DNA of 56,568 nt, filler included, from Platydemus manokwari (lineage: Eukaryota), in the NCBI GenBank assembly GCA_037951405.1. It is 5 parts of 5 records of this genome, joined end to end, with 100 filler letters (N's around TTAATTAATTAA, not from the genome) between each part and the next. Parts side by side here need not be neighbours in the genome. Positions count along the whole stretch, not along the records: positions 21,922 to 35,415 come from JBBMOY011704733.1; 4 more parts are not named here. The stretch is one strand, 5' to 3'. The notes below the pieces were generated by a model that saw nothing but the letters and a program-made list of their open reading frames with translations, was not told where the DNA came from and did no database searches. Each line of letters opens with the position of its first letter. The stretch's first letter is position 1. Below, piece after piece: positions 4,115 through 35,515 of this stretch. Both the position numbers and the translations under genes were made by a program.

Positions 4115-4979
4115 TTTTTAAATAACAAAACTTTTTTGATTCAAAATTGATAATTATTATAGTCAAGGGTATATTTATTTAAACAACATAGAGTTCACCA
4201 AATTAGTTTTAATTATGAGAAATAACTTCATTCACTCATTCATATTCAATTTTTTTTACAGTATTAAAATATATTTTTTCGTTTTAAACTTTTTTTCTGA
4301 ACAAATAAAAGTGAACCAGTTTGTCTTATTAAATTAGAATTTCATGCTAATCAGACGATTTAGTTTAAAACCGGTATAGGATTGAAATTTTAAATGTGTG
4401 TAAAAATATTTTTATAAATGAAGTTTCTGAATATTTATTTTTTATCAAATGATTGAAACTTTGAAAGGTGCTTTATAGATTTTGTAATCTATTATACTGA
4501 TCAGATCAGGTTTTGGAAGCACTTCACCATTATTCACAAACTGGTGAATTCAAAAGTATTATCGCTTGGCATTTAACTATTTTATTATAATTGATATTAC
4601 CTCATCCACCATAATAAATAACTATTAAATCATAGGAGAATTACAATTCCTAGATATTCAGAATAAATATTTAAAATCAAATAATGACATTTAGATTAAA
4701 TTGTTTTTATGAAATAATTATTTCACAAAAATAAAAACATTAATTAAAAATCTGAAATTGAATTTAAATCTGTGCATTCAAGAACGATGGATTTATTCCC
4801 AGATTTTATAATAAAAAGTAAATATTATGTTTGTCATACTTTTTCAAATGCAATAAAGGCAGTTATCAACTTTATAATAAATCGATATTTCAAACAAAAC
4901 CTTTTGAAACTTAAACACATCTAATATTTAAAGATATTCTGGATATTCAATAACAACATAAATCAGATTATTCAACATT

Positions 4980-7900
4980 TCAACAACGCTCAAACACACT
5001 ATATAAATCCGGCAAACTGGTAAGCTTTATCAGTGTTCCATCGTGTTCAAATGATGATGGGATGCGCAAAAATGATCGATACATCGGTAAGATGACATTC
5101 TCAAAAACATTTTCGAATTCATCTTTCACTGCAAATAATGATGTGTTGCTTCCGATACCATAAGCGTAAAATTCTGCAATTTCTCGACATATCCCATGTA
5201 AGCAAGATTCTTCTTCTTGCCAATTGATTTTTGTGCATAAGTTCAAAATAAATCTCGGCAGTCTTCGTAGGTCAGGAATAAATCTATAATTGGATTTTGT
5301 AGAATCATTAAATAAAATTAATTTAAACAAAATGTGTGCCTGCTCACAAATAAAATTAATTGATTTGAATCATTTATTAAATTATCTGTTCTCTATCAAT
5401 GATCTCAAATATTCAATAATCATTAATCAATTAACACAATTAATCCAATATCATTAAAAATAAAAATTATAATCGTCGATAAAATATAATAGAAAAGTAC
5501 TGCCATCATCACCATAGAAACAATGCTTACTTGTCTAAAACCATTGGTATCGTCTCTAGCGTCATCGAATCAATATTGATACGTATAGAGAAATAATCCA
5601 GTAACATTTCACAGTTATCTCTCAACACATTTATCATCAAGTCTGGTTCGAGTCCTTCATAAAGTTCACCAGCTTCTCGCAATCCAAAAATTAATAAATC
5701 CTTCAATAAAGTGCGATTATTCTGATTCTCCTTCATCTCATCATCGATCAGATCTATCGTTCCGAAATTGCCAAAATAATACAAGCACAACTGATAGAAA
5801 AGATTGTAATTGACGATCGGTGTGTTCAACAATAGCAATTCCTTTTCTCTTTGAATCAATACTCGATTATGATCGATCATTCCAACATAGACAAAGCTCT
5901 TCCAATTACAGAGATTCGTCGTGTTTATCGTCTGCCTGAGTTTCTCAAGCGTTGACAATTCGATTTTTCGATATTGCCTTTCAGCAACCATACAAGGAAT
6001 ATCGGAAATGGATATTGATGGGGAATCTTTGATGAAAATCTTTGCCGATGGTGGTTGGTCTGATTTATCAGGGGTTTCTGATTTGATAATTTTTGGGAAC
6101 GTAATGCGTTCAAGGTCGTTATTAGATTGGGGAATATTTTTCGATAAGACTAGCTCAGACGAGTTTTCGTTATTCTTAATATGTATATATAGGGAGAGAG
6201 AGAGAGTGAAATAATAAATATGAAATTAATTAAATTAAAAATTATAAAATAATTGACTAATACAATGGTTTAATATCAAAAAATTATATTTCATAATAAT
6301 TATAATTATATTATTATTTTCATTATTATAGTAATAAAATCTTGATTATATATTATTATGATTATAGTTATATTGACATAATCATAAATATATTATTGTA
6401 ACTGAAATTGCGATATCATTATTATAATCATTATTATTATATTAAGGATTATAATTACATTATCATAATAATATTATTATGTCAAAATACATATAATTCT
6501 CTTAACCGATGCCATTGGAATCGATATAATCCATCTTTATATGAATAATTATAAATAAACACCAATTAAAAAATAAAGAATAATTGAAGTCAATGATTTA
6601 ACACGAAAACAGAAGCCTTTCCTACTTTGATCGCTGGAGAGCTCGATGTGGATTCATTTAAATCTTTGGTGGGGAAAAACGCTTTGATTTTTTGCAATTT
6701 GGGATCGACTCGTATTTTTTCCGAAGGTCTTGGTTGTGATCGACAGGCACTGCTCATACTGGAGTTCAGGCTGTCGTTGTGACGACTTGAAAACGATTTA
6801 TCGAGTAGCGATTTAGTAGAGAAGCTGCGAGATTCGGATGAGGAAGAGACAGATTTTTCAATGAATTCTTGAATGCTTGCAACAATGAGCTCTTGATGAA
6901 GAAAATGAACCTGAAAGACAGAGATATAAATCAATAAGATAATCGAACGGGTGATATGAAATGATATCAATGAAAGCAAATGATCATTATTTTCTGATTA
7001 TTATATGAATATCACAATGATAACCAATTACAATGGTGCATAATATTATAATAAATTGCCCTCCCCTTCTCTACACTAACTAGAATGACAACTAATATCG
7101 TACATAGCGCCTAAATAAAGGCAATTCCTTACACAATTAGAGTGGTATTCTAATATATCGATCATGGTATTTCATGGGAATATATCATTACTATGACAAC
7201 GATTCCAGTTATTCAACAATCTGGGAACATATTTCCACAAATAAATGATAAATAAATCCCCTCAAACAATGTGAAGCCTAACTTCATATTTGGTTGGGTG
7301 AACGTTGACATCGAGATTCTTTGATGGCAGCTCCAGAGAAATAAATACGAAAGGAAACGTATGCTTGGGAAGCAGATTCACAAATACAGATTCGATGGCC
7401 TTTTTTAATAGATTGCAATGAACGAGACGCTTATTGATGAAGAGAATGAATTTCAATTTTCGAGAATGGTAACTCGGCTTAGATATACGGCCGGATAATG
7501 AATAACAAAGCTTGTCATCTAGGTGATCAATTGATAGAAGTTGCTTGGATAATTCACTTCCAAATAGATCAACAATGCAATCATCCATGCTCGTTTCAGC
7601 TACAATTCTCACGTCGGGACTCGGATTGGTCTTGTCATCTATACGTTTCAATGTTATGGAACATTTATGAGCATTCAGAATTGCATAGCTCGATACGACA
7701 TCAACAATTTTGGTATATTCTTCACGAGGACTACTTAGAGCCTGCTTGCGAATTGTAATGTTGTAAAACAAATCTTCTACTCGAACAATTGTGCCAGTAT
7801 TGCCAGCACAAGGCTTCGGATTAGAAACCATTCTACTGTCACAGAATTCAGCTTTAAACGCACAGGGCGAATCACTAGTTTTCGAAGTGATTTGTACATG

Positions 7901-8389
7901 AGCGACGTGCGTAATGCTAGCCAGAGCCTCTCCTCGAAAACCGAAGGTGTCAATGGTAAGCAAGTCATGAAATTCCTGAATCATTATGAAAATAACATTG
8001 CATTGAAACAATAAGCATCATTATTTTTATTTTTTTAACATTGAATCAGTGACATAATCAAATAATATTTGTCAAAAATTTAATATAGTAATTAATAATA
8101 TTATTTAGGTGAAATATAACTCCAAGAAATTTACTTGTAGTTTACTAGTGGTGAATTTTTCACACAATAGAGGAAAGTCATCTTTACAAATACCTGAACC
8201 ATTGTCTTGTATCTGAATGACTCCTAAACCACCTTGTTTTATGCTAATAATTATTTGGGTCGATCCAGCATCTAAACTATTTTCCAGAAGCTCTTTAATA
8301 GCATTAGCTGGTCGTTGAATTATTTCACCAGCAGCTATTTTGTTAATCACATTTTCTTCTAATTTTTTAATTCGTTTAACAGTAGTCAT
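4980..8389 (-). CDS. MLH1: DNA mismatch repair protein MLH1; inferred exons 8389-8135, 7975-7283, 6910-6626, 6174-5531, 5283-4980 (~726 aa)
   Basis: MutL GHKL motifs [44 protein letters not shown] and [14 protein letters not shown], plus the MLH1-specific C-terminus FERC*. GT-AG junctions join in frame; linker-exon boundaries are the least certain. Confidence 0.97.
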
Positions 8390-10543
8390 TTTAATAATAT
8401 AAATTCGATAAAATATTGCAGGTAAAATTAAGGTCTATTTTAAATAGTACAATTTGAAAACGCATTATTAAAACAAGATCTGTTAATTACTTGTTCCTTA
8501 TCAATTTTTAAGTAAATAATATTTAAACCAAGAACCTTATGATATATTCTATAAACACCACGGTAAATAAAATTTTATTTTTATTTAGTCATTGGCATAT
8601 ATCATAAATCAATATTTCAAAATAAAAGTTATGTATAAAAAAATGATCAAAAATATTTAAACAAATTCTAAAATGAATGTTGATTTGAAGTACATTGAAA
8701 ATATGATGTAATAAACTAAAGTTGATGGGAATTTTTATTATGATTTAAAGTGCTATGAAAATAGATGGTGCCACTATAATCTTATCATAATCAAGAGTTC
8801 AATTAAAAATCAAGGAAATAACATCAGTGAAATTTACAATTCAACTAACCATCACAGTGAGCTCTTTGAGATTCAACTTATATTACAGAATGTTATTGAA
8901 ACAGAACAAAATGAAACTTTGAATAACAATTATTGTGACATTGTTTAAAAGCAAAATTTTAATTAATAAATCCAGATTAACATAATAAATGCAATTGAAT
9001 ACATTTGGAGTAAATAATTAATGAGTAAAATATGATGATGAACATTGTAGGATAATAATAAAAAAATTACAGGGAATAATATACATGATATACTAATAAA
9101 TAATTGGCTAAAAATAAGTATTTTATTCCTAAGAAAATAAATAATGAAACATAAAAATCTCGTTTCGTGTATTTGGAAATAAAAAAATAATTTTATTAAT
9201 TTAAAATTTATTTAATATTAATACAGTAGATAGCTACATAGATATTTAATATTATCAATGAATAATGTATAATTCAAACCCAAGAGTCGAGGCCCCCAGA
9301 AATATTATAAGAGTAAGATAAAAACAGCGTTTTGTCAATTTCAATTTCATCTACAAAAAGCAATAATATTTCATATAATTAGGGTAATGGACTTGTAATC
9401 CAGTGTAAAGCTACTTATAGTAGTTTATGTTTTGCTTAAAACAAGTATTGAAGTAGCGACCATACACGTTATGAAGTATTGTTCTGACAGCCAGAAGCAG
9501 ATTCCGTGATGGTATTTCAAAACTATATCTAGGCATAGATATACTTTGTTAAACAATTGATGTTAATTTTATCGGGGCTTTGACCAATCGTAAATTGATA
9601 TTAGTAAAATTCACATGAATGTTATTTATTAATCTTATATGTTATTAAACTTAAAAGTATTTTAATTCAATGAGTAACCCAGATTAGAAAGCGGAGTCAG
9701 ATAATAATTAAACTTTTGTTAGAACCTGAGTAGTAACAGGTATAATTTTATACATTTAATGCGATAATTACAAGTATAATTTTGTATCAACAGTTTACCC
9801 TTCCTCGAGCTTGTAAACAATCTTTTTATTCTAAATTGGTTGATAAGGAAAAATCATTTCAATTTTATCCTGTCGTTTTCGACGGTTTAATTCTTCTCTA
9901 GAGTTTTTGATTGTAACAATCACTTTCTATGATTTTGTAAATCGTTTTTCCTCTTATGTATTCCGTTATTAATGAATCAATAATTCGATAATGGCCGTTT
10001 TTAATTTTTTCCTCTTCTCACATTTTATTGAATCATTGCAATTTTGACATAATTTTACATAGACTTACTGAACAGTGATTTAATTATGTAGAATAGTTTC
10101 AGAAAAAGAATTTTTGTAACATCTAAGAAACGAGATCAGTACAAAGATTGATTAATAGATCCCAAAGTTGAACATAGATGGAATTCTCATGAATTTTGAA
10201 TTATTATTATTTTGAGTCATGGTTATTTTTAATTATTTAGATTTTACTTCGCTTACACTTTATAATTTCTGTTTATTAATTATAATGTTCTTGTAACTTT
10301 TTATTGCCTGTCAAATCTTGTAGGACTCCTCAATAATAATATAACATATCGGAAAAAATCAAATAATTAAAATTATTCAGAACATATTTTCACAGTAGAT
10401 TCTTTCATACTACTTTACTAATATAGAATTATTATTTTTAACTTAAAAAAAATTTACACTGTTAGAAATAAGCCGTTTTATGCTGAATAATTTATTTAAT
10501 ACAATTACGATGTTATACACATCATTTTATTACTGATGAAGTA

Positions 10544-15860: not shown

Positions 15861-18787
15861 TTAAACAGTATTGATTTTCTATTTGCATTTTTAAAAAATT
15901 TTATAACTTGAATTAACTGAAATCCTTGACAAGAGAATCGATTTTAGATTCTTTCTAATTATTGATCTAATTCGATGAGATCGTAAAAATCTTGTTGATT
16001 GGCTTGATACCAACGACCAGTGTAAATCGGTACTTTGAAAGTCAATAAACTGTTCTCCTTAGTAAATTATCATTGTATCTAAACCAATTGAGAGCACGTG
16101 TTTAATATAAATATCAAAGGGAAGACGACTTTTCCTTAGGAATTTAATAATTCAGTAAGTCAAGTCAACAAAATCGATATTTTTAACACTAATAAGAAAC
16201 TAGGAACTACTATTTAAAAGATGGAAAAGTCATTCAACAAATGCTTATCTCATATAACCCCCTCCAATATCACTTATGAATTGGTTATTCCAGATTCCCA
16301 ATTTTTTTATTCTCTTAGACGCTTTTAGTGGGAGTCATTTAAATATCAGGAATATATTATAATTACACAACTGACAGGCACATCATAGGACAATTTCGAT
16401 AATTTATATTACACATTTATTGCACACACACAAATATATATTTTAACAACAAATTGTTTATGATTTCGTGTTATTGGGATTCGATATAATTTAAAGATCA
16501 GTATTATTGATGATTGCATTACTGCAAGGCACAATAAGGATATTCCATTTCTCCGTGAAAAATTACGTCATTTTTAATATTTTTATTGCTTACTAAATTG
16601 GTACTCTTTTTTCTTTCGGTAAATCATTTTTTAACCTATTATCATTGCAGATAAAGTGTAGAATCGAATAAATTTGTGAGCTCAATATTTGGTAAATAAT
16701 TATTCTCAATTTCCCTTAATTAGATTCTATTAAATTCATTCACTGGTATATGAGTGTGTTGCGTAATCACTACAACTGAAATCCAAAGAACTTTTCAAAA
16801 TATTTGATATAAACTACGACCATTAAAACAAAAGCTCAGAAATGATAGGCTATTTGAGTCTACTTCAATTTTGGAATCCATCAATAATATTTCACAGTTT
16901 CATATAGAAGGGGAGTAACATACCCCCTTATTTTAATGAAATAAAATTAATTTTCTTTGGCTTAGTTATTTAAAATCAATATTAAATCGATAATGATGTT
17001 AAATTAGGAACATAAATGCATGTTGAAATACAATAATACTGCATAAATGGAGGTGAAAATCTATGCAAGTTGAAACTGATTATGAAATCAATTAATCGAG
17101 GAAAAATCAACAAAATAATATTTAACTTTCTTACACAAAGTCCTGATAGTTCAGAGAGAATAAAGAGTCGACCAAGTTCTATCGATTTTAATCAGTAAAT
17201 CCCAGATATCAGGAGAAATTTGTAACATTCATTAGAATATATTTGTCTTTTTATGAATTGACTGATTGTTGGCTAGGTTCCAGGACTTATTATCGCTCTT
17301 TAAACTCTGTTTCCACTAACATGAGTCTTTAAATCTGAACCAGTTCGATATACATTATTCTAGTTTATCCAGATGAGGAATTAAATATTTTCATTAAATT
17401 ATGTCTGGTAAAATGTTCCCAATCAATATCAAATTCATTGGCAGAGTTTGGTAACGAAATTATAGACGATTCTAACAAATCCAAAATCAAATTATAAAGA
17501 ATAAAGGATAAGTCCAAAACTTATTCCAGGATACGTGATAGTAAAAAAAATTCAACTCAGTGATGTTAATGATATTGTTAATATCAGCCATATAGAATAA
17601 GGCGAGCTTGATTTTGTCTAACAGGAGCTGACCTACGTGATTATTTTCACTTCCATCTTTGAAGCTACTAGCAGAATTGTCTTCTTTCCTCGAACGCGTT
17701 TCCGAGAATCTGAGGTTGATTGAAATTCACTAGTTGAGTGTACTAATTAAAGTAGTAAATATAAGAATTCCTGTGTACGAGTAGATGTTCTATTAATCAA
17801 AATTTCGTAAAACATATAAATATACAAATATAAGTTATGAATATGTATATGATAGAATGATGTTACTTGAAACGTAAATGTTTTATTCATCAATATTGGG
17901 TGGGATTGAACCCAACAGTGAAGAGAATAAATTCAAAATTCTCCCACTGATTAATTTGAACTCACAGTCATCTTACTCAACTTCATTTTTTGCATCTTTT
18001 GCATTTATATTTCTTTTCAAAATTGCTGTATCTCTGGGAATTCTAAAAGTGATTTTTAAAAAATGCGCTTAAAGAGAATCTCCAAAACCTTTTTGGGAGC
18101 GTTTATGGTCCGGATTTGCTGAAATAAATTCATTTTTGACTTCAGAAATCATAATCTTGATGCGCAGGGTTTTCAAATATTGTGTTGAGAAGATATTATT
18201 CAGAGACTCTTCTACTTAACTTTCAATAATGAAGAACTACTTATATTCTATCAATCGCTCATACATGACCGGATAAATCAATTAATTATATATTATAATA
18301 AAATGACTGTAAAGGGCCTCCAAATATCCAAATACTCACTGAAAAATAGATAAAATCAATAATTGTTTCATCTAAACCAGCTTCAGGAGGTCTTTTGGAA
18401 CTCTGTATAAAAACTAAACTTGTGTATTTTATCGGGTCTTGCTCATTTGTGTGCCACTAAACTCTACAAATAAATTTAGGTCTCGGAAAAATAGCTTCAG
18501 AAATCTACGTGATTTGATATTTGTGAAAATAAATTTTTATGGATAAATTATGAAAAACCGCAATTTGAAATACTGATTTTATCTAATTAAATATCTTTTC
18601 GGTTTTCAAGCATTTATCAGTATTTAAAAGTAAACTCGTTATTGAATTTTAAATTCAACTTTTTCAGTTTGATATTTTCTACAATTTTCACTAATATTGA
18701 TTTCATAAAAAATTTTAACAACTCTCTTTGTTTAACTGCACTAGTTTAATCATTAATTTTTTTGCCAAGGTTGTATATGTTTATAGT

Positions 18788-21539
18788 ATGCAGAGACGAA
18801 ATAGTACTGGAAAATTTTTAAAGGACAAATTCCAAAACCTTTTAGAAGATACTTTCAATGCAAATATAGATCCAGAGATTTATGGCAATCGATACGTTTT
18901 TGAAATAGCCTGGGAAGTCGTTAATAAAGGCACGATTTGACCTTTTTAAATATAATCACGTTTATTTTTTATTTCAGTTGGTGGCATTTATACTGTGATC
19001 AAAACCAAAGCAGGGGTTTCAAAAGATGAATTGGGAGATAATTATATATTGATGGGCCCATTGAACGAAATATGCATGCGCACAGAGGTCGATGTTTTGG
19101 AACCCCCGCCAGGACCAATTGGTGATACAATCAGTGAGATGCGATCTCATGGAATAAAAGTAGTTTAGAAATGTTGAAAAAAAATCAATAAAAAAAATTT
19201 GATGTAAAGATCGTTTTCGGTCGTTGGCTAATCGATGGTTATCCGCTGGTGGTATTGTTTGATATTGGTTCATCTGCTTGGCGAATCGACAGCTGGAAAA
19301 AGGAATTGTGGGAAGCCAGCCATATCGGTATACCAGTTCAGGACAGTGAAGCTAACGACGCAGTCATTCTCGGTGGCTTGGTGACTTGGTTTTTAGGTTT
19401 GGTAAGAGCAAAATCACAAAAATATGCCAACTGATTTGATTGTCCAGTTTCGAAATAATATCGATAAAGAAGAAGGCAGATATACGCCAATAATCGCTCA
19501 CTTTCATGAATGGCTTGTAGGTGTTGGGCTGATTTTCACACGAACAAGATCGTTAGATATTGCAACTGTTTTCACTACTCATGCAACACTTCTCGGACGA
19601 TATTTGTCAGCAAGCTCAGCTGATCTGTATAACAATTTGAGTAAATTTGACATTGATAAAGTTAGTGAATTCTTATTGGATGATAATTTATCGATTGAAT
19701 TGTGTTTGTGTGTGAGGTAATGTCTGATTGTTGTACACAATTCAGGAAGCTGGCGATCGAAATATCTATCACCGATACTGCCTGGAAAGAGGAGCTGCAC
19801 ATTGTGCTCATTCGTTTACAACTGTCAGCCAAATCACGGATCTGGAAAGCCAATATCTGATATCACGCAAAGCAGATGTTATCACACCGAACGGTTTGAA
19901 TGTCATTAAATTTGCAGCATTGCATGAGTTTCAAAATCGACATGCTCAAGCAAAGGAAAAAATTCATCAATTTATTCAAGGTCATTTCTATGGGTATTTA
20001 TTAGTTATCGTGTTCTGATATGGATCGATAATCCGTGAATTTATTTATAGACATCACAATTTCGATCTCGATAAAACTCTTTATTTTTTCATTGCCGGCC
20101 GTTACGAATTCGAAAACAAGGGTGCGGATCTATTTATCGAATCATTAGCAAGGTTGAATTATCGATTAAAGGTAATTTATCTTGGATTAGTCATTTTCTA
20201 TAAAATAAATGATATTATGTAATAAGCGCAGTAGTGGAGAATGTAAATAAATGACATAATAATAATAATATCAATATACATGAAATATATGCCAATTAAT
20301 CTGTCGACAATTTCATTCATTTCTCGACTCCATTAAGAATGTCAAATGCGTATTCGATTGACTTCAAACATTGATTTTCAAATATCCAATAATAGCAGAC
20401 GTGGTTGGAGTGATTTCATTGGTGGAAATTTATCACCTGCAAACCAATGATTGCTTGTAAAAATAGCTCTCGGAATTTGCGGAGGTCGAGAAAGTTTTTT
20501 TAAACAAACTAAAATAGTACACGACCAAAATCGATGTTTGTCAATTTTCGAATTCTTGCCCGGGTTCGCAGTTACATCATTGACATATCGATATATTTGC
20601 ATCTGAGTTGTGTTGGCTTGATGTTGCATCGAATATAGCTAGTGGGCTGGAGAAAAAAATAGTGTAAATAAAATGTGTTTGTTTGTTACAGGAAATGAAA
20701 AGTGATGTCACTGTGATAGCTTTTCTGATTTTCCCTGCCCGGACAAACAATTTCAATGTCGAATCGTTTCGAGCTCAGGCTATTGCTAAACAATTGCGTA
20801 GCACTGTATTCGATATTCAAAATACTATGGGTAAACGATTGTTTGAGATGTGTTTGAAAGGGAATGTTCCTCATGGCGATGATATTCTGAATCAGGATGA
20901 TATCGTGAAATTAAAACGATGTATCTATGGAGCTCAGAGACAGAGTCTTCCGCCGATATCAACACATAATATTTTGGATGATGGCAATGATCCAATTTTG
21001 TGTAATTTACGTCGATGTCAGCTGTTCAATGCTCGCTCAGACCGAGTTAAGGTAGTGCAGAATTAACGATAATCGAACGATTCGAAATTGATTATCTTCA
21101 GGTGATCTTTCATCCCGAATTTCTGAGCTCAAACAATCCCCTAATCCCATTGGACTATGAAGAATTTGTTCGTGGTTGTCATTTGGGTGTTTTCCCGTCG
21201 TATTATGAACCGTGGGGTTACACACCAGCCGAATGTACGGTGATGGGTATTCCATCTGTCACTACCAATTTATCTGGGTTCGGCTGCTTCATGGAAGATC
21301 ACGTAATGGATCCGAAATCATATGGAATATACATTGTTGATCGGCGACATCGATCGGGTGAACAATCAGTAGAACAGTTGACAGGTGTAAGTCAAAATAG
21401 CTGGTGATTTGCTATGAGTTACACTTCATACTTTCAGTACATGCTCGATTTCTGTCAATATTCTAGGCGACAACGAATTGTCCTTAGAAATCGTACAGAA
21501 CGCCTCAGTGAATTGCTTGATTGGAACAATTTGGGATTT
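18788..21539 (+). CDS. GYS: Glycogen synthase (GT3 family), 3' end missing in the gap; exons 18788-18929, 18978-19159, 19210-19401, 19448-19660, 19746-19993, 20051-20171, 20692-21051, 21102-21386, 21438-21539
   Basis: Motifs [87 protein letters not shown] and [20 protein letters not shown]. Junctions join in frame. Confidence 0.97.
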
Positions 21540-21821: not shown

Positions 21822-24800
21822 NNNNNNNNNNNNNNNNNNNNNNNNNNNNNNNNNNNNNNNNNNNNTTAATTAATTAANNNNNNNNNNNNNNNNNNNNNNN
21901 NNNNNNNNNNNNNNNNNNNNNATTCACCTCGCAATCAAATCTATATGAAGATAGAAATGATTGGCAACAATGATCCAAATAATTATTGTTTAATCCTATC
22001 AGTCTCAAAATTATTTTGTAAATATTAATGCCTCAAATATCAATTGACAACTCAACTCCTTTTTCTAAATAAATCTTTATTAATACAATGAACAAAATTA
22101 CAGTTTACACTGGAATAAAACATTGGATAACCGCTAAAACCTACAATTCCAGATGAGAGCGGTTAATACGTCCTTCTCTTGGAGTAAAACCGATTACCAA
22201 AGATATTTTTGAGCAAAGCTGTATAATAAAATGATAAACGATACGTACTATATATTCGGATCAGTTTTTTATACAAAAATCGAACTCACTGCTTGGAATG
22301 ACAATATGGAGTATGTTCTGTCGTCGAGCAAATTCTTCTAACAATCTTCGAGGGATTTGTCTAAATAGCTGCTTCTCAAACGCGCTATAGTCTAGTAGTT
22401 CCGTAAATTAATGGGCAAGTTCTGGTGTTCCGAACTTCTATTTATACTGCTTTTATTCATTATGCTTAAATGATTAAAATCGCTACATGATATTTTAATT
22501 CCCACGGATTTCCCGAATATTAATTTATTATTTCTTTTTACTACAGGATTTTTATTATTGAGAATATTATTAATTTCATTTGTCCCTAATTTTTAAGTTC
22601 TTTTCTAAAATATTATTTTTCCTAAACTTATTAATGTATTTTAAAGTCAATTCCATTTCATTGCCGTTTCAAATTATTTATTTTTATAAATTATCTATAT
22701 TTTAAAATATATAATAATTATTATTTCTAATTAATCTCTCTATCTGGAATTTATAAAAATTGATACATTTTGACGTCATGTCAAAAGTATCCAAAAATGA
22801 TTTATTACATTGACTTCACATTTAGCCAATGTTTCCTAAAATACATAGATACATTTCAGTGTATCGGAATTAACTATTGAGCCGAATCCATAATAATTGA
22901 TACAATTTTTTGGATACAATATTAATTAATCCAAAAATTATACAGCTATAATTAATACTGTTATACACTTATAAACACTTTTTCAGTTATTCTCAATACT
23001 TGTAACATTTATCAAAGAAAATAAAGCATAAAAATAAAAGTATTATTTGCACAGAACTGTTAATTGTTAAATTTTAATGCTCCTAGACCCAATTCCCAAC
23101 AATTATATTGAATCATAATACTGAAGCATATTTGGTATAGCAATCAATACTTCTATAAACCAAAACAACGATCAGTATGTTACAGAACGGAATCAACGAT
23201 ATCTAAATCTTATCACCCTCAATGTCTTTCACGATATAGACGTCTTCAGATTCTCAATTGCCTCAACAAACAGGATCATATTCTCAATCCCAGTCGTCAG
23301 TCTCCCATAAGATATTATCACAATCCCAAACTCAATTCTTCTACCGAAGTGTTCGAAAACCCCAATCCAAGTAGAAAGTAAACATTGATGATGACATTTT
23401 GTTATTAGACTAAGTGATTTTTGTGACCATCTTTACATGAAATGTATATAATTTATTTTTGAATATGTCAAAAATATTTGATGTATAATCATAATAGAAA
23501 TCTATAAGGGGCAAAATTATATTTTGAGAATAATAATAATGAATAAAATTATAATAAAATTTATAAATATGGATGAAATATAAATTATAAATAAATAAAT
23601 ATGGGTAAAATATAAGTTATAATCAATAAATTTAGGCGAAAAATAAATTAATTAAAATGTGGGCGAAATTAATTTATTGTTGGCGAAATCGAAATTTTAA
23701 AATGTGGGAGAAAAAGAAAATCAAAATTAATAATGTGAGTGAAAAATAAATTAAAATTATTGATTTAGGCGGATTTATAAAATAATTTTAAAATCACCAA
23801 TAGAAAAAAGAAAATAATGATCGAAAATAATGATTCATAATTCGTAATAGAACACAGTATATAAACAATGGAAAAATCAGAAAATTATCTCACACGAAAA
23901 AGATTTCAACGACCATATTACTGTGAGAAAAAACTTTGAAAAAAAGAAAGAAAAGAATAATAAGCACGATTTCGTATAACGATAATAATGAAAATCATTA
24001 AAATAGGTGTGTCGATAGTTTAAAAATCTATAATATTTAAAATCTACATTTTCAACACAAAGGAGGTCCGTTATCAGAGGCTTTCATAGTTGACCCTTTT
24101 TTAAATTGTGTGTTTGAGTAAATGTAATTTTGAGTGGTTAGAAAATAAAAATGTTTTATTAAATAAAGGAGATTTGAATCAAATTTCTATATCACAATTT
24201 TAATGATTTATAGTAAATTTGAATAAAAATTATTGATTTGATCTTTGTTATTGATTTATTTTAATTATAATATTTTGATTCACGCACCTATCGGATTGAC
24301 ATTGAGCTCCAACAGGCTCCAGTTTAGAACTCAAAGTAAGATTTGAACAATAATGCATAAATTCCAACAAGAGATCCCTAGGAAGTTATGATTTATAATG
24401 CCGAAGTCTGTTGGGGTAAAATCTGTAACATGAATGAGTCTCGCTCTATAATTATGAAATATAATGGATCGTTGTATACATTCGTTAATTATTTTACAGT
24501 AAAATGCCTTTCCTTACTATGGCTGAAGTTGTTTAATTTGGATGCTGTATACAGCTGGGTGATCTTCAAAAAACGATTTATAGTTCCAGTGGTTTCAAAG
24601 GTTTTAAACGGGGTATTTATGTCAATTAATATTCCCGGGTAATTCCTTATAGAAATTGTTAATTGTTTTATGTTTTTTAAACTTAATGCACATGCATTGT
24701 TTCGGGAATATGTAAATTTATTTGGATTTATTTGAATGGGTTAAACTGAAGATGTTTATGAGTAGTTAATAATAATAATAATTTTTATCTTTCATTATCC

Positions 24801-26107
24801 CTCAATTCTCAATGGGTTTCTTTATCTGAATAATGAGTTAATGGATTTTTTATATTTGCGTGATATTTTTCTATGAGAGTTCGTTTGACTATTTCGTCGG
24901 CTATATTCACAATTGTTAATTATTATCGAGCTCATAAATTATTTATTAGAAATTTGCATCAATATGAAAATTGATAATTATAATTATTAGAATTATTGAT
25001 CACCTTTTCCTGGAATAAATAATTGTAGACATAACACACTATATTTTTACGCAAAATTTCTATGCAAATGCATAATTTTATTTTAATTTTATACATTGAA
25101 TCACAACAAAATAAATGCCAAAATTTCAGGGTATGTCAAACGCCAACATACAAAATTAATTAATTGTTCCAACAATATATATATTATATCTAATATTTCA
25201 AATATGCAACCTTTAATACTTATTGCAATCAGGTAAGTTATTGATTTATTTTATGTAATCGACTCATTCTTTTCTGTGTTCTCACATCTTTGAAAACATT
25301 AGGTATTTCAAATTCCGTCTGAACTAAAACTTTCCTTAACAAATCTTCAATTAAATCCTACAAATATTTTTAATAATATCAAGATTCACCTTAGCTCTTA
25401 CTTTTGAAGTTTACATGTTCAATGAATTAATTGTAAGGTAATCATTAAGGAGGTTAGTTAGAAATAGCGATGTGATGCTATCAAATTTAGATTTAAATAA
25501 CTCATGAACATGAAATAAATTTGAAAAGTGTTTATGGAGTCAGATATATGACATTCTACTGCTTTAATAAGCTTTTTAAAAAATATCTTATAACACATTT
25601 CTCAACTTATCCACTCTCCCAGATCTAGCCATATTTATTAAAGTGATTTTAAAGATTTCTAAAAAGAAATTTAAATTTTAGTAATTTATTTAAATTAAAT
25701 TAAATAGATTACTATTAATCTATATTTAATGTTGAATGGATTTTCGATTATGATAATATTAACTGAATTTATTTTGAAAATTATCAGATATTTCTGCGTA
25801 AAATAATCTCATATTTGGAATATCATATCAGAGAAAGTGATTTCTGAATTACTAGTTATTAAAAATCATGTGAATTCTTAATTGATTATTTGATTATATA
25901 AATAATTATTAATTTAAATATTATTAAAACGGATCGAAGTGATCACACTTTAAATATCTTATTTCTTTCAGATAAAATTCAAAAATGATTTGCTATAAAT
26001 CACCAATAACATACAAAATATATTTTAAAGTATTTGTTTTAATAATAGTGATACCATGGAGATTTTAAGTGTTGTCATTTAAAATTTGTTCTTTAATTTA
26101 ATTACAC

Positions 26108-26641
26108 ATGTCTAAAGCACCGAATTTACCGCCTCTTCCATCAAATTTAACGGAAGAGTTGATAATAGAATACAGAGAAGCATTTAATTTACTTGTTACT
26201 CCTGAAAACCCAACCATATCAATTCAAGCAGTACCGTTATTAATACGTAAAATTGGATTAATGCCAAGTGAACAGGAGCTCAGTGTAATATTTTATCGGC
26301 CTTCATAATGACGTCATCTGCATTTGTAGCAAATTTTAGACGAAATCGATGTCGATGGAACTCTGGCCTATGAAGGGTTGAGCTTTGAACATTTCTGTCA
26401 GATTGCATCTCGCAAAGTGAAAGACGTTTACAGCGAAGATGACATCATTGAAGCGTTTCGGATTTTCGATGTGGACAACAATGGATTTCTACCGGTGAGC
26501 GAAATCAAGCGAGTGCTGCAAGGAATGGGCGAACAATTGACGGATGAAGAGATGAATGCCATGTTGGAGATTTCAAAACCAGATGATAACGGCAATGTGA
26601 GATATGAAGAATTTGTTCGAGACGTTGTGGCCAATGACTGA
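26108..26641 (+). CDS. Calmodulin-like EF-hand protein (~162 aa); exons 26108-26284 and 26330-26641
   Basis: LTEELIIEYREAFNL, IGLMPSEQEL, SEDDIIEAFRIFDVDNNGFLPVSE, MGEQLTDEEMNAML and NGNVRYEEFV align with calmodulin. A 45-nt phase-0 GT-AG intron joins the two ORFs. Confidence 0.92.
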
Positions 26642-26660
26642 TTTACATTGTATAATTGAC

Positions 26661-26944
26661 GAATATTAATAAATAATTTGATATTGATTGATTTTTTAAT
26701 TAATTATTAATTAATTAATTTAATTAAATAAAGAGTTTTAATAAATAATTTGATATCGATTGTTTTTTTAATTAATTATTAATTAATTATTTTAATTAAA
26801 TAAAGAATATTAATAAATAATTTGATATTGATTGATTTTTAATTAATTATTAATTAATTATTTTAATTAAATAAAGAATATTAATAAATAATTTGATATT
26901 GATTTATTTTTTAATTAATTATTAATTAATTAATTAAATTTAAT
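26661..26944. repeat. AT-rich minisatellite, ~72-bp unit x4
   Basis: Unit GAATATTAATAAATAATTTGATATTGATTG...TAATTAAATAAA starts at 26661, 26733, 26805 and 26876. Confidence 0.9.
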
Positions 26945-28409
26945 ATAGTACTGACTGATGTGGGGTTTGTTTTTGACTCCAATTATGACATAGCGCACAA
27001 TTGATATCAATGCAGCTTACACCAATTCATAGCAATGATAAATGTGGTTGAATTCGATTGATGTCATCTCACTTCAAATCTAGCTCGTGCGATTTGTGCT
27101 TCATCGATATTGGATTTGAAAATTATTATTGAATGGATTCGATTTATCCCGTTTAATCTCGGTTAAAAAATCTCATTTTGACAAATGTGGCTAAGATTGA
27201 TTGGATGGATTGAAGAAGGCATCGGTGGATTATGAAAAATTCCATTTAAAATCGGGTAGATAAGCATTGCAATGATTTACAGTTCCAGATTGGCTAAGAG
27301 AAACTGGTGAAAAAGCCACTTTTGTGGGCACGTGACTCTAAGATTTATAAAATGCCTGTATTCATCAATATCATCTTTTTCCCTCCTAAGATAATTAGAT
27401 ATTAACTAAGTCTGACTGTTTAAAGATTTGATAAAAAATAGGATTAAGATACAGGTGCACATGTCCTCACACGACTTGGCCAGAGAAATGCCTATATAAC
27501 CAACTTCGTCGTTGGTTGAATGTACTTTATTTGGGGAATGGATTTTCGAACTTTACATTAGAGAAAAACATATTGTTATCCACAATAAATATTGAATTCT
27601 GTAAAAATATACAACAGCGACACAAATTCCTAAAAGTAGTCAGAACGATTATTACAAAGAAAGATTACATCGCCTATAATATAAAACACACATGATTTAC
27701 ACACAAAATTGGAGGTTCCTGCCTATAGTCTATTCAATATATAGTCTTTTTGTAGGTTCTGATTGGTGTATTATTCAGTGATTTCCCTATGGTATAACTG
27801 TCTTTTGATTGTTTATCTTTTGTTCTTTTACGATCATATTTTGTTGGCATGCTTTAATGTCAAATAACCACCGAATCAGTGGTCATTGATTTGAAAGTCG
27901 CGTTTGCCTGCTAACACCACTAATTATTATGTATATGCTTATACCATTTTAACAGATTATTTAAGGTTTCTTTGAGAGTCTTTATCCAAAGTTTAACTCT
28001 CATCATAATAAATTTAAGAAGTTTTTTATTGTTTTTAATTAGTTCTAGATTATTTTACTATTTCACATTTTATTGGATTAGATCGTTTCCTCACAATTTT
28101 TTTGTTAAACCAGTGTGTCTTACCAATTAATGAGGTTACTAGATTTTGTTTTCTGGAGATTCATTAAGTGTGACCACAGTCCTGAAATTACAATATAGTG
28201 ATCTTATTGTCATTATTTTTACATTATCGATGATGTTGAAACAAAATCTATCTAGTTATATTCTCTTTATTAAGCTTTTATTTGAGTTTTGATCAAATGA
28301 TTAATTCAAACTCAAGCTCTGTGCAACGTTGGATAACAATTTTTATAACAATTTTAATTTTATGCATGACGATACGTGTGACATGTGGATTAAAATATCC
28401 ATCAAACAA

Positions 28410-28926
28410 AGACCTTACTGAACCAATGAAAAGAATGCAACACTTATCCTCATTAAACTAATAAAACAGTCAACCTCACAAATTGTGTCGTCACGGCGTC
28501 CGATTGTTCTCTAGGACATACCATACCGAATTTTTTGTAACTATCCTTAACCTATAAATCTTTAACTGGATAGAAGCTAGCAGCCTTTTCTCTCTGAATC
28601 AAAAGGCAATGTTTGCCTCTAACGGATGTGCTGAAAACAACGTCTACTTGTTTACCCTATTCGAATACACAACTTAACAGCACCGAGACTTGTACCTCTT
28701 CTAGATCGATTTGAAAGAAGCATTCTCAAGCATACCACAGGACCTCATCTGGCTTACTCTGGAGAAAATAGTATAAAACTCTCACTACGTTAAAATATTA
28801 AAAACCTTATACCAGAACTCCAAATCTAGCTAATCCTGTGGCCAGTTAAAGACACCATCAAATCCCATTCACTGTGGTGTCAAACACAGATGCCCACTAT
28901 CTATGTTCTTATTCTGTCTGTCAATT
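28410..28926 (+). mobile_element. Decayed non-LTR retrotransposon reverse transcriptase fragment (R2/NeSL-like)
   Basis: Translates with stops and one frameshift as RPIVL*D..YRIF, LFSLNQKAMFASNGCAENN, IDLKEAFSSIPQDLIW, LKTLYQNS and PIHCGVKHRCPLSMFLFCLSI (cf. RT motifs DxxxAFxS and GVKQGCPLS). Confidence 0.85.
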
Positions 28927-29462
28927 CCAAATATCTGTTTTGAAGAATTTATTCCTGTAAAAGTATATTTCCTATTTTTCTGTTTTAAATTATGAAAAGG
29001 TTTTCTTCTTTTGAAACCTTTATTATAAGTATTTTCGTTTTCTTTAGTTTTATCTGGCATCCATCCAAATAGTTTTCCTATTCTGCATTGTGATTCATCT
29101 ATTAAAGTAAAATTAACATACTTGATATTTTGATAAATTTTCAATCTTTCATTTTCATGAGTTCCCCATGTTAATCTCATGGAATTAAATAAATTTGGAA
29201 AAAAGTTATTTCCTGAAGTAATATTATAATTTACCTAAACATCCGCTTCATTGTTTTCTTTTGTCTTTTTAAATTCAAATTTTATTGAATATCGAAGGAA
29301 ACTATTACAAATATCTAAAGGATTTGAAGTTGGCTGGAATTCAAAAACAATATCAGTAGATTTATTTAAATTTGTTGGCAGTATCTTATAGATTAATAGC
29401 ATGAAAATCTTTTTTAATTCAATGTACAAATTTATAAATTTTTTATCTAGGTTTGTCACCAT
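28927..29462 (-). pseudogene. Putative major capsid protein (double jelly-roll), N-terminal part
   Basis: Reading through a stop at 29235-29237 gives DIVFEFQPTSNPLDICNSFL...ITSGNNFFPNLFNSMRLT...GWMPD...NKGFKRR. This resembles Polinton MCP N-termini (NNFxxSLF, NxGFxxR) and lies downstream of the ATPase on the same strand. Confidence 0.6.
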
Positions 29463-29799
29463 TTTTATTATAAAAAAATAGGAATAAAAATATTTCGTTC
29501 TCTTAAAATTTTTTTTGAGCATGCACTTTGTTATAATTGAAAATATTTTTTGTTTATCTTATTTTTTCTTTATTTATAAATCGTAATAGATGTATTTAGA
29601 TTTATTCACCTCCTCAAATGCTAATTGATGTTCTTCTTAATTTTCTGATCTAACAAAGGTTTAGCAAATTCAGTGATACCTTGATTTAACAAAATTTTAG
29701 AATATTGTTTTTATTCAGAAATTATTTTTCAAGGAAACAATCTTTTTTAATTCTTCTATTCTTTTATTTATGTCGAAAGTTCCCATTTTAATTTTTAAA

Positions 29800-30564
29800 T
29801 TTAAGTCTACTTCGTCTTTATAAATTGTAAACAGATCTACAAGAATTAAACCTTATCTTTATCGAATGCTATATTTTTTTTTATTTCTCCTTCCATTGTT
29901 TATTTACTAAAAAAAATAAAATCTTCTTTTTCTGTAGTGTTGAAAAATAAATCCGAATGTATTAAACCTTTATCTCCTTTATTTAATTTAAATAAAAAAA
30001 TAAAATTTGAATTATTTCTTATTGAATTCTTTGGTAAATCACACCAACTTTGGGATAGGTAAATATTATTACAATTATTATGTCTTCCTATTGTAAAATA
30101 AGCAGATATTATTTCCTGTGAAACAATCATAAAAAATTATTAAATCCTTTTTATTTTTATTTAAGCCTGATGGTTTTATAATTTCATCGGATTTGGGAGT
30201 CATAGTTATAGAAAAACTTCATTCGATGTATTATAATTTTCTGTAGGAGGTAAATAAAGCTCACCAATTTCTCTAATAGTTAAATCTTGGTCAAAATTAT
30301 GTTGATTATCAAATATTTTATTATATATTCTTTTTATAAACCATTTTGAAATCAGTGATATAAAACTTGATATTCTTCTTGATAAACAGTTTTTGAAAAT
30401 ATTACTAAATTATCATAATCTAAAAATCCGAGTGTTAATAACATTTTAAAAAGTAATTGACTTTTACCACAACCAGGACTTCCAAAAATTAACATTCTAA
30501 AAGATGAAAGAATATTTAGATGATTATTAAAAGTTATTTTATTTCTTCTCCAAACAAAAGTCAT
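29800..30564 (-). pseudogene. A32/FtsK-like genome packaging ATPase (Polinton/adintovirus type)
   Basis: Walker A RMLIFGSPGCGKS, degenerate Walker B LIIFYDC (~30125-30145) and the family motif FTIGRHNNCNNIYLSQSWCDLPKNSIRNNSN. Interrupted by stops and frameshifts. Confidence 0.9.
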
Positions 30565-30649
30565 TTTTAAATTTAAAAATTAAATAAGATTAATAAATGT
30601 GAAACCCTATTTAACAACTTGAAACTTATTAAAATACCGGTCTAGCTTG

Positions 30650-31250
30650 AAACTCACGGATAAAGATTCTGATAATTTTTGAGGTTCTGAAATATGACCT
30701 CATTCTACTTTACCTTGAAATTCTTTAATAAAATCTTCAGATAAAATTTGAAATTCTGAAATAGCCCCCCGTTTCACTTTATCTTGGAATACTTTAATAA
30801 AAGATTCTGATAATTTTTGGGGATTGAAATATGTCCTCATTCCACTTTATCTTGAAATTCTTTAATAAAATCTTCAGATAATTTTTGATAAAATGAAATA
30901 GCTTCTCAATCCACCTTATCCTGGAATTCTCTAATAAAATCTTACGATAATTTTCGATAATATGATATAGATTTCCAACTCACTTTATCATGAAATTCTC
31001 TAATAATTGATACTTAAAGTTTTTGATTTATGCAATCTAATATAAGGATTTTTTCATGTAAATTTTGTATACAATAAGGACATTCATCACCATCATATTT
31101 TTTATCACATTCTTCACGTATATGATGTTTACAAAAAATAAGCATGAATGTTTTCCTATAATATACTATACATTCTTCAGAATTTTCTGATTTTTTATGT
31201 AATCGTTTTCCATTTCTCTCAGTAAATTATTTTAAATTATTTGTCTTCAT
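30650..31250 (-). pseudogene. RING-finger + 23-aa tryptophan-repeat protein
   Basis: EECIVY...CKHHIREEC...ECPYC (decayed RING), followed by about five 69-bp repeats of WxxISxxQKLSEDFIKEFQDKVx, the Trp-repeat type seen in large DNA viruses. Several stops and frameshifts. Confidence 0.75.
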
Positions 31251-31281
31251 TTATTTTAAAAGTTAATTTTTTATTTAAAAA

Positions 31282-32261
31282 ATGACTGAATTCGCTGGGG
31301 GATATTTATGTCAGATTTGTAATAAAGAAATTTCTAAATCTAATAAATCAAAACATGAAAAAACCAAATCTCATATGAAAAATACGAGTATGAATGGTAC
31401 GAATGGCAGGAGTAAGAATAGCATGAGTATGAATAGTACGAGCATGAATGGTACGAGCACGAATACAAATAAGAAATTAAGAGGTTTTGAATTTATTGGA
31501 GGAGACTCAATGAAACTGATGACCGGTGGTGATATACAAGAAGCAATTACAAATAATAATTTTTTAAATAAATATAGTACTGGATATCATTAGGGAGAAT
31601 TTCATTTAAAAAGTATGAATCCATTTAATAAAACTGATCCTGTTCATATTTGTACGTGTCAAAATGAGCTCGAGTGTTGATTCAAAGTCAATTCTAGTGT
31701 TGTCTAAATTTTCTGTCAACAATGCAATACCTTCAAATTGCGGGGAACTCCTAAAGTTTTCATCTACTACTTCAATTGAGAAATCTTTTGAATGATCTCA
31801 GGTAATGACTGATCTCTAGTGAAAACGTTATAGAATACATGGACAATCCGCAGCAAGTTTCCTAAGTTCGTTATGATAGGAATATTGAAACTGTTCAGAG
31901 ACTAAATGTTAGTGGAGATAAAAATTTAATCACCTCTAATGATTACTTAAGATAGAGTTCAAATTACAATTTGCAAGGCACAAATCTTCAAGAACATTTA
32001 CAAAATTATGATGAAACTGGAAAATTAGATAAATCTCCAATTCCAAAAGAAAATCATCAACTTGTAAAAAGAATAGATATGATAGCATTGCAAGATGATC
32101 TTGATTTTATTTCAAATGATTTACAAGATAGACATGTTGCTAATGTTGAAATGATACATCAAATGGATAATATTCCAAATTCAACATTCAGAGAAAAATT
32201 ACAACGATTTTTAATTAAAAGTATTATGAAGGGGAAAATTATTCTTGGACAGGGCTGTTGA
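31282..32261 (+). pseudogene. C2H2 zinc finger + viral-type phospholipase A2-like gene; exons 31282-31659 and 31974-32261
   Basis: CQICNKEISKSNKSKHEKTKSH zinc finger, then GGDIQ...H*GEFHL...HICTC|QGTNL...RIDMIALQDDLDF...DRHVANVEM...GKIILGQG. This matches the parvovirus/adintovirus PLA2 pattern GExHL..HNFTGPGT..D..A..HD..Y..R..AD. Internal TAG at 31591; catalytic HD reads DD. Confidence 0.75.
31660..31973 (+). ncRNA. Group I self-splicing intron, IC1-like, partly decayed, no homing endonuclease ORF
   Basis: P AAATTGCGGGGAA (31735-31747), Q AATCCGCAGC (31845-31854), R GTTCAGAGACTAAA (31893-31906) and S AAGATAGAGTTC (31949-31960) occur in the correct order. P4 is TGCGG/CCGCA and P6a is AGTTTC/GAAACT. 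The 5' exon ends in T, the intron ends in G, and removal restores the reading frame. Confidence 0.9.
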
Positions 32262-33160
32262 GATAATACCCATGCAGACTGCAAACCAATAAATTACATA
32301 ATAATAGATAATACATAAAAGTAATAATAATAAATAAAACAGAAAACCCACATTAATTAAAATTCAGGCGTGTAGGCGGAATTATATTAATAATAGTTAT
32401 ACAATTTTTTCAATAAATTATTAATCCATGTTGCCATGGCAATCCGAAATATAGTCATAGAAATTCAAATTTAAATGCAAATTGCCATGACAACGGTGGA
32501 TATTACTAAGGAAATCCTCAAATAAGGAATAAAATTATTCATTCGCCAAAATCAAAATCCTTATAAATACTGAAGTAAAATTCAGTATTTTGCCACAAAA
32601 TTACGCAGTTCATAGCAATTACAGATACTTCGAGACTAAATTCGAGATTGCAAATCCAAATTCAAGATTACAAATCCGATTACAAATCAAATACGAAGCG
32701 ACATTCGCAGCCGAGTCAACTCGTATACCCTACTAAATTCAGTCATTTCTAGCCTCCGGCAACAGTTGTTTACCTATTATTCAGCTCAATTATTAATTCA
32801 AAATGGTAAAAGCTGATTATTATTTTGATCACCTGATGTCATTCTCCGAAAGGAGATTTGTTGTCAGTGAACTTTAAACCCTCACAAAATCGTAACAGAG
32901 TTTGTGAGTCTAAAATCACTATTTCCTTAGTTTATATACCGCAGTGGGGCGCCATTTAGTTGTTATTTACTGATAAATCTTCCGGGCACAACAGCTTACT
33001 CCTTCTAACTTACAGCATAACACATTTGGTAATATTTATTATAATAAAGTATTTGTTATTACATTATTGTTGTTCTTATTAATATTTATATAACTCATTC
33101 ACACGCAATCTATTAATCTGTGAAGCTTCAGATATTGGTGGAAACATCAATCTCGAACTA
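32256..33160 (+). repeat. Possible solo-LTR-like repeat abutting the viral element
   Basis: Begins TGTTGAGAT, like the other LTR-like repeats in the window, with a TATAAATA at ~32563 and a higher-complexity noncoding body. The right boundary is uncertain. Confidence 0.35.
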
Positions 33161-35515
33161 ACTGAAGATCATATAATTACATAATAAATTAACATTTGAA
33201 AAATCGCTGATTCACTATTAACTTATCACCAAACAAGTTTCCATCAGTACGACAAATAATTTATGAAATTATTATATTTTAATAATGTATTTTGTATGTA
33301 TAGAAAGCAGATTAAAGGAATCAATATTGAGAAATAATTATCGACACTGAGAAATCATTAATCAATAAAAAGAAAATATAAGTAAATAAGAGAAGGAAGT
33401 TAAATAAATTGTAAATATCAGACATAATGTGACAGCACGCAAAAGCGTACTGTGGGCTAACACATAGTATTAATAACTCTAAGGTGTTCAATTGAAATAA
33501 TATTAGTTGTACCAACCCTTAGGCATTCATTCACAATTTAATCTTGTTCAGACCCAGAGCAGCATCAATTCCTCTGTGCGAAAGACTTTTTATAAAATCA
33601 ACTAATTTTTCCATTAATTCGGTCTCATGCCAGTTACTGAAGCCCCTGCAAATCGAAACTTTCAACCTTAATAACCATAAAATACTTTTAATAGCTCTTT
33701 GAAATTTTGCTATGCTCCTTTTAAACCAAATGATACAATATTGAATTTATAAGAAACATCAGCATCTGCCAACGCGGTTTTACATTACCAATACCATTCA
33801 GTCGAGAATATTTCAGAGTTTTCTATTTTATCAGAAATAGCTTGTAAAGACATAATGGATATGTATCTTTTCTAGTAAACGCATTTAGTATTTAATAATT
33901 AATACATCTAATACTACCGACAATATTTTTATATGTACTACTAGCAGTCCTCACGTCAAATAATTGAATCGTTAATATCGTTTTAAAGAATTTACAGTTT
34001 TTGCCTTGTTTTCTTCTAAGCATACTCAAGCTATACAACATAACCCATATCTAAGAACACTACTTTACCTGGTATCATATACTAAGTAGGTGCTTCTAAC
34101 ATCAAATTTTCGATTGGCTATTAATTCAATAAATTATTTTAGTGTTCGTTTTTGGTTATCATTTATAATATGGCTATTAACATTAATGCGTTTTTTATTA
34201 ACAGTAGTCTAATAAACATAAGATACAATCGATAATTCTCGGGTTAAGCGCAACTACTTTATTTACAAAATCGAACAAAACTAACATTAATCGATCGAGA
34301 ATTTTTTAATTTTTAATAATCACCAATTTATAACAAATTGGTATTTCGAATTCTCGAATAATAAGCATACCTTGTCAGTACGAGGAACCTTCATAATATG
34401 CCACTTCCAATCACATGTCATAATAAACGCTCTGTACAAATATTCTCAATCGAATTAATTCACTAACATTAAGAAGTTTCAGCAAAGTGTTCTTAAAATA
34501 TGCTTAAAATCAACTAATCTAAAACTTTAAATAAAATGTTTAATTTTTCGACGTAATACTTCAATTATAAACGAAATGTTAGAAAAAGTAACAAAAATAT
34601 ATTTTCTAACCATGCGTATAAAGGTTAAATCTTTTTGAAATATCAATAAAATCAAAATCGAATGGCAGAATAATGCTTCATGATATAATTATTCTCAATA
34701 TCACAAGCAATATTTGCAAGTAATTTCCCATGAATTACTCCAGTTTTAAACCCAGATCCTTTGAATAACGATTAGACTAAAATTCGAACATGTATAAAAT
34801 TACCACAAAATCCACATCCAATTATAATCTTCTTGAATACAGGGTGTCTATCGATTATTGGTTGATCATCAGGAGTTCTCTAAAATATATTAATTATACT
34901 ACTCAATAAAATGATTAATATTTTCTTTTTAATATTTTTTATTATTTGCAATACCTTGTCCTTATTATTTGATATAAGTTGTGGTAATAAATCAAGCTAC
35001 AAATTTTAAAATCAATAATTATAATTAATTACTAAAATCATTATGTAACTGCACTCACATTTTTTTTATGCCTGGAGGATTTGAATATCTAAGCGAAGGC
35101 ACAAAAAGCCCACGTGTCAACTCTTACTATTTCACTTACTCGAAGTTCAACCCAAAAAGTATTCAAATAAATATTCAAACAAAATATGTTTAACAATATT
35201 TTATTAAAAATAAGCTGTTTAGAAAAAGTTTAAAACCTTCACACCTTCATTTCTATAAAATCTTTGATCTTCTTCACATTTCTTGATATTGAATTCTGTG
35301 TTTTTCCATATTTTTATATCAAATTCAATCAATCTACCTATATTACCTACATAGATCTTCTCTATATATCTTTGACAGTTTTCTTTCACTGATTCTTTAA
35401 TAATCAAATCGGTATNNNNNNNNNNNNNNNNNNNNNNNNNNNNNNNNNNNNNNNNNNNNTTAATTAATTAANNNNNNNNNNNNNNNNNNNNNNNNNNNNN
35501 NNNNNNNNNNNNNNN

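Follow-up and report, generated by a model that had tools for sequence, protein, structure and literature searches.

Genes and features at the locus

The window (the whole 56,568-nt stretch of Platydemus manokwari DNA that was analysed, from assembly GCA_037951405.1) contained a PLA2 gene split by a group I intron, within the remains of a mobile element, and also pieces of host genes (Table 1). The intron-bearing element is Polinton-like and decayed. Its likely capsid gene remnant was recognized through the L057 homologue, whose Atlas neighbours included Sputnik_MCP_1st and DJR-like clusters (score 0.96, a lead only). A retroviral-type integrase was encoded in the sibling L016 (rve, E 3e-10), and pPolB (PF03175) had matches in the genome, with a remnant next to the ATPase gene and the intron at L010, one locus among 131. 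Terminal inverted repeats and a target-site duplication were not found at 27500-33500 of the window, where the copy is a fragment on short contigs, and no whole element was seen among the loci examined. Degenerate direct repeats, with spacings of 69 and 137 nt, occupied positions 30662-31025 between the ATPase and PLA2 genes.

The best named hits of the glycogen synthase exon came from annelid, brachiopod, mollusc and flatworm (about 68-71%), and the host was therefore taken to be an animal. An origin of the elements from a contaminating protist or a free virus, outside the animal nucleus, is very improbable. The genome (911 Mb) is very fragmented, in about 2 million contigs, and the EF-hand gene on the element contig is not placed taxonomically, both of which leave room for contamination; against it, the copies number dozens, are differently decayed and have unrelated flanks, the scaffold of the window bears the animal-type glycogen synthase, and GC content was uniform (24-34%).

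Table 1. Features of the window, with positions counted along the whole stretch
Feature	Position	Strand	Basis or remark
Host MLH1-like gene, in exon pieces	~5000-8434	-	
Host glycogen synthase gene, in exon pieces	18700-21400	+	Neighbouring contig of the scaffold, not the intron's own
EF-hand gene piece, likely host	26330-26641	+	Pfam EF-hand_7, E 1e-14; same contig as the element (21922-35415)
Element DNA common to sibling loci, approximate	28900-32300	.	blastn coverage
Major capsid protein gene remnant, likely	29091-29435	-	52% to L057 ORF
Broken gene for a packaging-ATPase-like protein, head to head with PLA2	29903-30579	-	Pox_A32 E 0.009, below cut-off; 81% to sibling ORF
Exon 1 of the PLA2(-integrase) gene	31279-31659	+	Encodes a zinc-finger-like Cys/His motif, a linker of low complexity and the first half of the Ca-binding loop of PLA2
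Decayed group I intron of 314 nt and giant-virus type, extended by a P5abc-like element and lacking a nuclease ORF	31660-31973	+	Rfam, core pairs, covariation
Internal guide sequence	31665-31672	+	P10 part 31665-31667, P1 part 31668-31672
P7 strands (31900-31904 and 31955-31959)	31900-31960	+	Wobble at the G-binding pair in the window
Exon 2, remaining PLA2 domain	31974-32261	+	PF08398 on uninterrupted allele L061, E 5.6e-7

The interrupted gene

The zinc-finger-like motif at the N-terminus of exon 1 matched zf_UBZ weakly (E 0.014), and the exon carried an in-frame stop at 31591-31593 in the window copy. Exon 2 of the window, which ended with a stop at 32261, retrieved neither homologues nor a Pfam family when used as sole query, and a PDB sequence search with PLA2 gave no relevant match. 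PF08398 exceeded the Pfam cut-off on the uninterrupted alleles L061 and L064. In several siblings, among them L029 (1791-2282), the PLA2 domain continued in frame into the start of an integrase, which with the zinc-finger-like motif in front makes a ZnF-PLA2-integrase fusion; this integrase portion was absent from the window. GPGN is described as the parvovirus calcium loop in the accessible part of one source (PMC8964545). Both the GPG loop and the His-Asp catalytic dyad were altered in the window copy, with Asp-Asp at the dyad position. The dyad was present in 30 of 48 intron copies, just 5 of 41 scorable copies had an open frame on either side of the junction, and decay was evident in all copies examined.

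Structure and state of the intron

Positions 31660-31973 are a group I intron that separates the Gly codon from the Pro codon in the PLA2 GPG loop. The initial annotation, made from the window alone, had placed an intron in the Ca-binding loop at TG^PGT and had read the spliced codons as cat att tgt acg tgt (31645-31659) followed by caa ggc aca aat (from 31974). These codons were present as given, and siblings and uninterrupted alleles displayed the Gly/Pro junction directly: the last exon-1 codon was Gly in 20 of 33 genomic copies and the first exon-2 codon was Pro in 22 of 33. The splice position was kept in the siblings, and the motif ran unbroken through 18 uninterrupted genome alleles, which fix the splice site exactly, and through the best 80 of 419 metagenome homologues.

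The Rfam family RF00028 matched 31683-31975 with 59 bits (E 1.8e-12; gathering 50), and its cut-off was exceeded by 23 of 28 genome matches. A profile built from 25 giant-virus introns only found the window intron at E 1e-34. About 100 nt separated the P4 strands, with motifs that also occur in the viral introns; the intron may belong to subgroup IC1. Core pairs were kept at 25 of 31 positions in the window, and at 28-29 in two siblings. The window intron was preceded by U and ended in G, and the U.G pair of the 5' splice site was present; among the short intron copies U.G was found in 37 of 47 and the terminal G in 36 of 47.

The guide GCTCG was located at 31668-31672, with one U-U mismatch to the present exon end, exactly as the initial annotation had it, so that P1 paired at 4 of 5 positions including the U.G wobble. 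Damage elsewhere had escaped that annotation: P10 retained 1 of 3 pairs, and the guanosine-binding pair of P7, G-C in 26 of 33 siblings, was a wobble. The wobble argues against activity of the window copy and leaves its membership of the group I family untouched. Free-energy folding of the window intron was no better than that of shuffles (z -0.5), in line with its decay and pseudoknots. Two variants of the intron 3' end were found, one with a P9 hairpin and GAAA loop (22 rows) and one short and hairpin-less (19 of 41 intron rows); positions 31960-31973 of the window had the short form. The window copy is likely a dead, nuclease-less remnant.

The ancestral loop had been proposed as HNFTGPGTNL, with guide pairing and protein motif pointing independently to a GGT codon before the intron. 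Gly-Pro was borne out; the Phe was not, as the third codon before the junction was Tyr in 29 of 33 siblings and Phe in 1 of 33. A Gly codon was likewise supported, without the full independence of the two lines of evidence, since the guide U accepts A or G. Position -3 was G in 25 and A in 5 of the 33 siblings, and L027 and L043, with A at -3, paired at 5 of 5 positions. Because pairing allows any purine there, the residue is chosen by the protein motif and not by the RNA.

Sibling copies and uninterrupted alleles

Ninety-eight loci were examined, of which 60 were unique with both exon anchors, after 27 partial and 11 duplicate loci had been dropped. An intron of 277-369 nt was present in 47 of them and one of 1028 nt in a single locus, and the other 12 were uninterrupted. 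Contigs from four sequencing runs were considered. Joints that skip the intron in X1 were rejected as a sign of splicing, uninterrupted DNA alleles explaining them; X2-X4 yielded short pieces only and were left out.

Base composition at the exon end was scored in 33 copies chosen by DNA similarity or Rfam with the junction ignored (omitting the window copy and 4 rows that had indels at the junction). The last exon base was U in 30 of them, and the terminal G of the intron was kept in 28. A pattern that left position -1 open gave U in 24 of 25 intron-bearing matches, and U ended the exon in 19 of 20 nuclease-bearing copies. The last base of the Gly codon in the 18 uninterrupted genome alleles was A in 11, G in 3 and U in 4. 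All of the best 80 of 419 metagenome PLA2 homologues were uninterrupted; 72 had Gly-Pro, with a U-ending Gly codon in 20 of 72. The excess of U in intron copies fits the U.G rule, the counts not being independent events because the copies are related and go back to few sources (star-like tree).

The exon-2 tree comprised 51 rows, 9 of the 60 being too short, and was poorly resolved, with bootstrap values not settled and several long branches. Ten uninterrupted rows were interleaved with intron copies, requiring 7 changes, at least 3 of them forced by well-supported branches; gain and loss are not separable, owing to the poor resolution. Median pairwise identity was 87% for the intron core and 84% for exon 2, and no pair exceeded 95%. 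From these sequences the family appears to be an old burst of copies that then decayed.

A second Polinton family (L059, L064, L065 and L070) had an uninterrupted PLA2, a separate integrase and a protease-like ORF, with DUF5679 in L064. The Gly codon ended in U in three of these four loci, still without an intron.

Intron-borne nuclease

The initial annotation had regarded the insertion as a mobile group I intron in a conserved motif, and mobility is backed by an HNH-type ORF carried by the intron in siblings. The 1028-nt intron (L045) had an additional stretch of about 700 nt at the P2.1 loop region, which encoded a broken ORF. A genome search with the nuclease ORF returned 43 matches, and 30 of these loci were taken; a broken HNH-type ORF thus lies inside the intron in no fewer than 30 copies. 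Where the locus left room for it, the guide region preceded the ORF (23 of 26 loci), and the P motif followed it in 19 of 22. Open stretches reached 51-164 codons at most, all 30 loci being broken; viral homologues had 243-272. Nuclease fragments matched endonuclease VII (phrog_1035, E 6e-6) and HNH clusters in the Atlas; Pfam gave no HNH match for the ORF. Homologues at 30-39% identity occurred in ORFs of 8 viral intron loci, and in L148 the homologous ORF was flanked by the P and Q motifs of an intron core. Both 3'-end variants occurred among nuclease-bearing copies (6 and 5 of 30, with 19 not scorable).

The family therefore bears two marks of mobile introns, namely a peripheral-loop nuclease ORF, present in siblings and absent from the window copy, and coexisting uninterrupted alleles. 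From the sequences we infer homing, in which the nuclease would have cut the uninterrupted PLA2 site.

Viral relatives

About 140 stretches of viral contigs carried the core pattern. The closest ribozymes were about 70% identical and interrupted capsid and other genes, some of them putatively named, of giant-virus-like contigs. Covariation was evaluated on 29 natural introns (25 relatives from viral contigs, 3 from the P. manokwari genome, and the virophage intron L203) against a structure drawn by hand from the same rows, the 25 rows having been picked by a pattern that fixes P4 and part of P7. Under these terms, 96% of cells paired and 15 of 31 pairs changed on both sides; this level was reached by 0 of 500 shuffles, and slid controls gave 32-48%.

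Contig L203 was a virophage (Sputnik MCP, E 4e-53), and its intron (4674-5000), of the giant-virus type, lay exactly at the PLA2 Gly/Pro codon boundary. A profile of 25 other viral introns found it at E 3e-16, with 30 of 31 core pairs kept; Rfam missed it (E 0.01). Covariation in P1, which the initial annotation had proposed to look for, was given by this one independent example at the same site: the L203 exon end differed from the usual sibling at -4 and -5, with compensating changes in the guide, and P1 was present in the minimum-energy fold. Two L203 relatives at 71% identity were uninterrupted, with a Gly codon ending in G. Two intron-end patterns gave 10 and 27 stretches in the viral contigs, with PLA2 in the contig of L203 only, and no PLA2 match was found among the first 80 viral intron loci or 41 shorter ones. 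The A1 profile had no match in viral contigs, nor had a virophage capsid query any in the P. manokwari genome.

The introns of Polintons and virophage may go back to one insertion, or to homing across the two classes, as opposed to two independent invasions, a tentative reading to which we give somewhat less than even weight. Identical codon boundary, intron type and guide spacing speak for a common origin, and an AU test did not reject the grouping (p 0.14). However, L203 shared no more than 63% identity with any row and fell apart from the P. manokwari introns in the free tree, its intron had no nuclease ORF, and 80 of 80 other homologues (the best 80 of 419) had no intron.

Interpretation and relation to known systems

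It is quite likely that a giant-virus-type group I intron, with or without its HNH gene, homed into and self-spliced in an active Polinton-like element, its copies decaying afterwards in the animal genome. By comparison of sequences we infer the splicing, the cleavage and the donor. A cassette of ribozyme plus HNH nuclease from the giant-virus pool would home into a codon pair that the virus cannot change; the nuclease would cut uninterrupted alleles, and repair would copy the intron in. The guide would pair with a U-ending exon, and removal of the intron from the RNA would keep PLA2 and the fused integrase being made. Loss of the nuclease in many lineages would yield the short copies, in a cycle of invasion, degeneration and loss, and integrated copies would decay with their elements. 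The composite would likely derive from a giant virus or a virophage met in a shared host cell.

The intron could instead have been a passenger, active only in an earlier protist-infecting virus and never spliced in the animal, the intron-bearing elements being copied in trans by uninterrupted helpers. This is rather unlikely. Uninterrupted alleles of the same subfamily do exist (14 of 18), intron core and exon 2 have decayed alike (87% versus 84% median identity), and the variant without the 3' P9 hairpin is common (19 of 41), all as a passenger would have it. On the other hand, amplification took place in nuclease-bearing and in nuclease-less copies and in both 3' variants, most of the time preserving guide, core and terminal G, and since the integrase lies downstream in the same frame (L029), an unspliced intron would abolish the integrase too.

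A different advantage would arise if the intron masked the GGNCC site that Gly-Pro forces from a GGNCC-cutting, restriction-like nuclease of the element, which we hold to be improbable. The insertion splits a GGNCC, and the ratio of observed to expected GGNCC sites was 0.33 for element-like DNA and 0.76 for unique flanks, but homology among the copies deprives this count of independence, and an element would be expected to hold few such sites. Depletion was seen neither in L203 (6 versus 4.7 expected) nor in its uninterrupted virophage relative L340 (9 versus 4.3), RE_TdeIII (PF09520) had no match in the incomplete genome with the query used, the nuclease that was found is HNH-type, and uninterrupted GGNCC alleles are common.

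With homing and self-splicing in an active element as the preferred reading, there is about an even chance that the broader picture holds, in which Gly/Pro would be an intron hot spot of virophages and animal Polintons, giant-virus cassettes would enter animal chromosomes, and the nucleus would once have held ribozyme-spliced protein-coding RNA with a full homing cycle.

Group I introns of protist Polinton-like viruses and of giant viruses are already known; what this analysis adds is the PLA2 family in an animal genome, the broken HNH ORF and the virophage intron at the same site. According to the accessible text of PMC12220804, Polinton-like viruses of protists (Rhodomonas, Paulinella, Desmodesmus; few protist groups only) have group I introns of 309-376 bp, which are likewise short and in a protein gene of an endogenous Polinton-like element. 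That gene is a short unannotated one lying upstream of that for the capsid, and the text names no nuclease carried by the intron, whereas the P. manokwari family resides in an animal, interrupts the calcium loop of PLA2 and includes an HNH-type ORF. Bodo saltans virus, in the portion of its description consulted (PMC5871332), has introns in essential protein genes, HNH nucleases and nuclease-less offspring introns, for which virus competition was proposed. The parts are the same, and the closest relatives of ribozyme and nuclease found here are in giant-virus-like contigs; here, however, the gene is the PLA2 of a small virus, in an element that has integrated into an animal genome and multiplied there.

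Nuclear group I introns were placed exclusively in rRNA genes of microbial eukaryotes by a 2013 review, as excerpted (PMC3679873). The IC1 rRNA introns it covers share the P1-P9 core, enlarged P4-P6, peripheral-loop nuclease and cycle of invasion, degeneration and loss, but the P. manokwari intron splits a protein gene in animal DNA. A parvovirus-VP1-like PLA2 in an animal Polinton-type element is also known as PLA2X of adintoviruses and Polintons (PMC8502044; PF08398); no intron is mentioned in the portion of that source seen, while PLA2 runs into integrase in the siblings here. Searches of mostly open literature found no group I intron for animal Polintons or virophage PLA2, and the accessible parts of PMC8502044, PMC11296320, PMC10748475 and PMC6125680 contained no animal case.

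Nuclease-bearing, nuclease-less and empty alleles side by side in animal DNA point to Polinton-like viruses as the entry route, and ribozyme splicing of protein-coding RNA in animal nuclei becomes testable. Use of this site by a virophage intron as well connects the Polintons of animals with the pool of giant-virus introns and hints at shared host cells.

Other observations on the viral contigs

In L340, GANTC was observed 0 times versus 14 expected in 6.3 kb, which suggests restriction-site avoidance. A related group I intron split a gene in the viral contig L141, presumably a ubiquitin-like gene as judged from its translation. L203 had two divergent ORFs, at 2234-2986 (-) and 2984-4673 (+), with a GS...DxD motif common to both and no Pfam hit; the motif is reminiscent of nucleotidyltransferases. 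The longer of the two (2984-4673) ended in the intron-split PLA2 domain. A free-standing ORF of L203 at 9235-9780 (-), also with no Pfam hit, carried a motif that we take to be GIY-YIG-like and is possibly a homing nuclease acting in trans.
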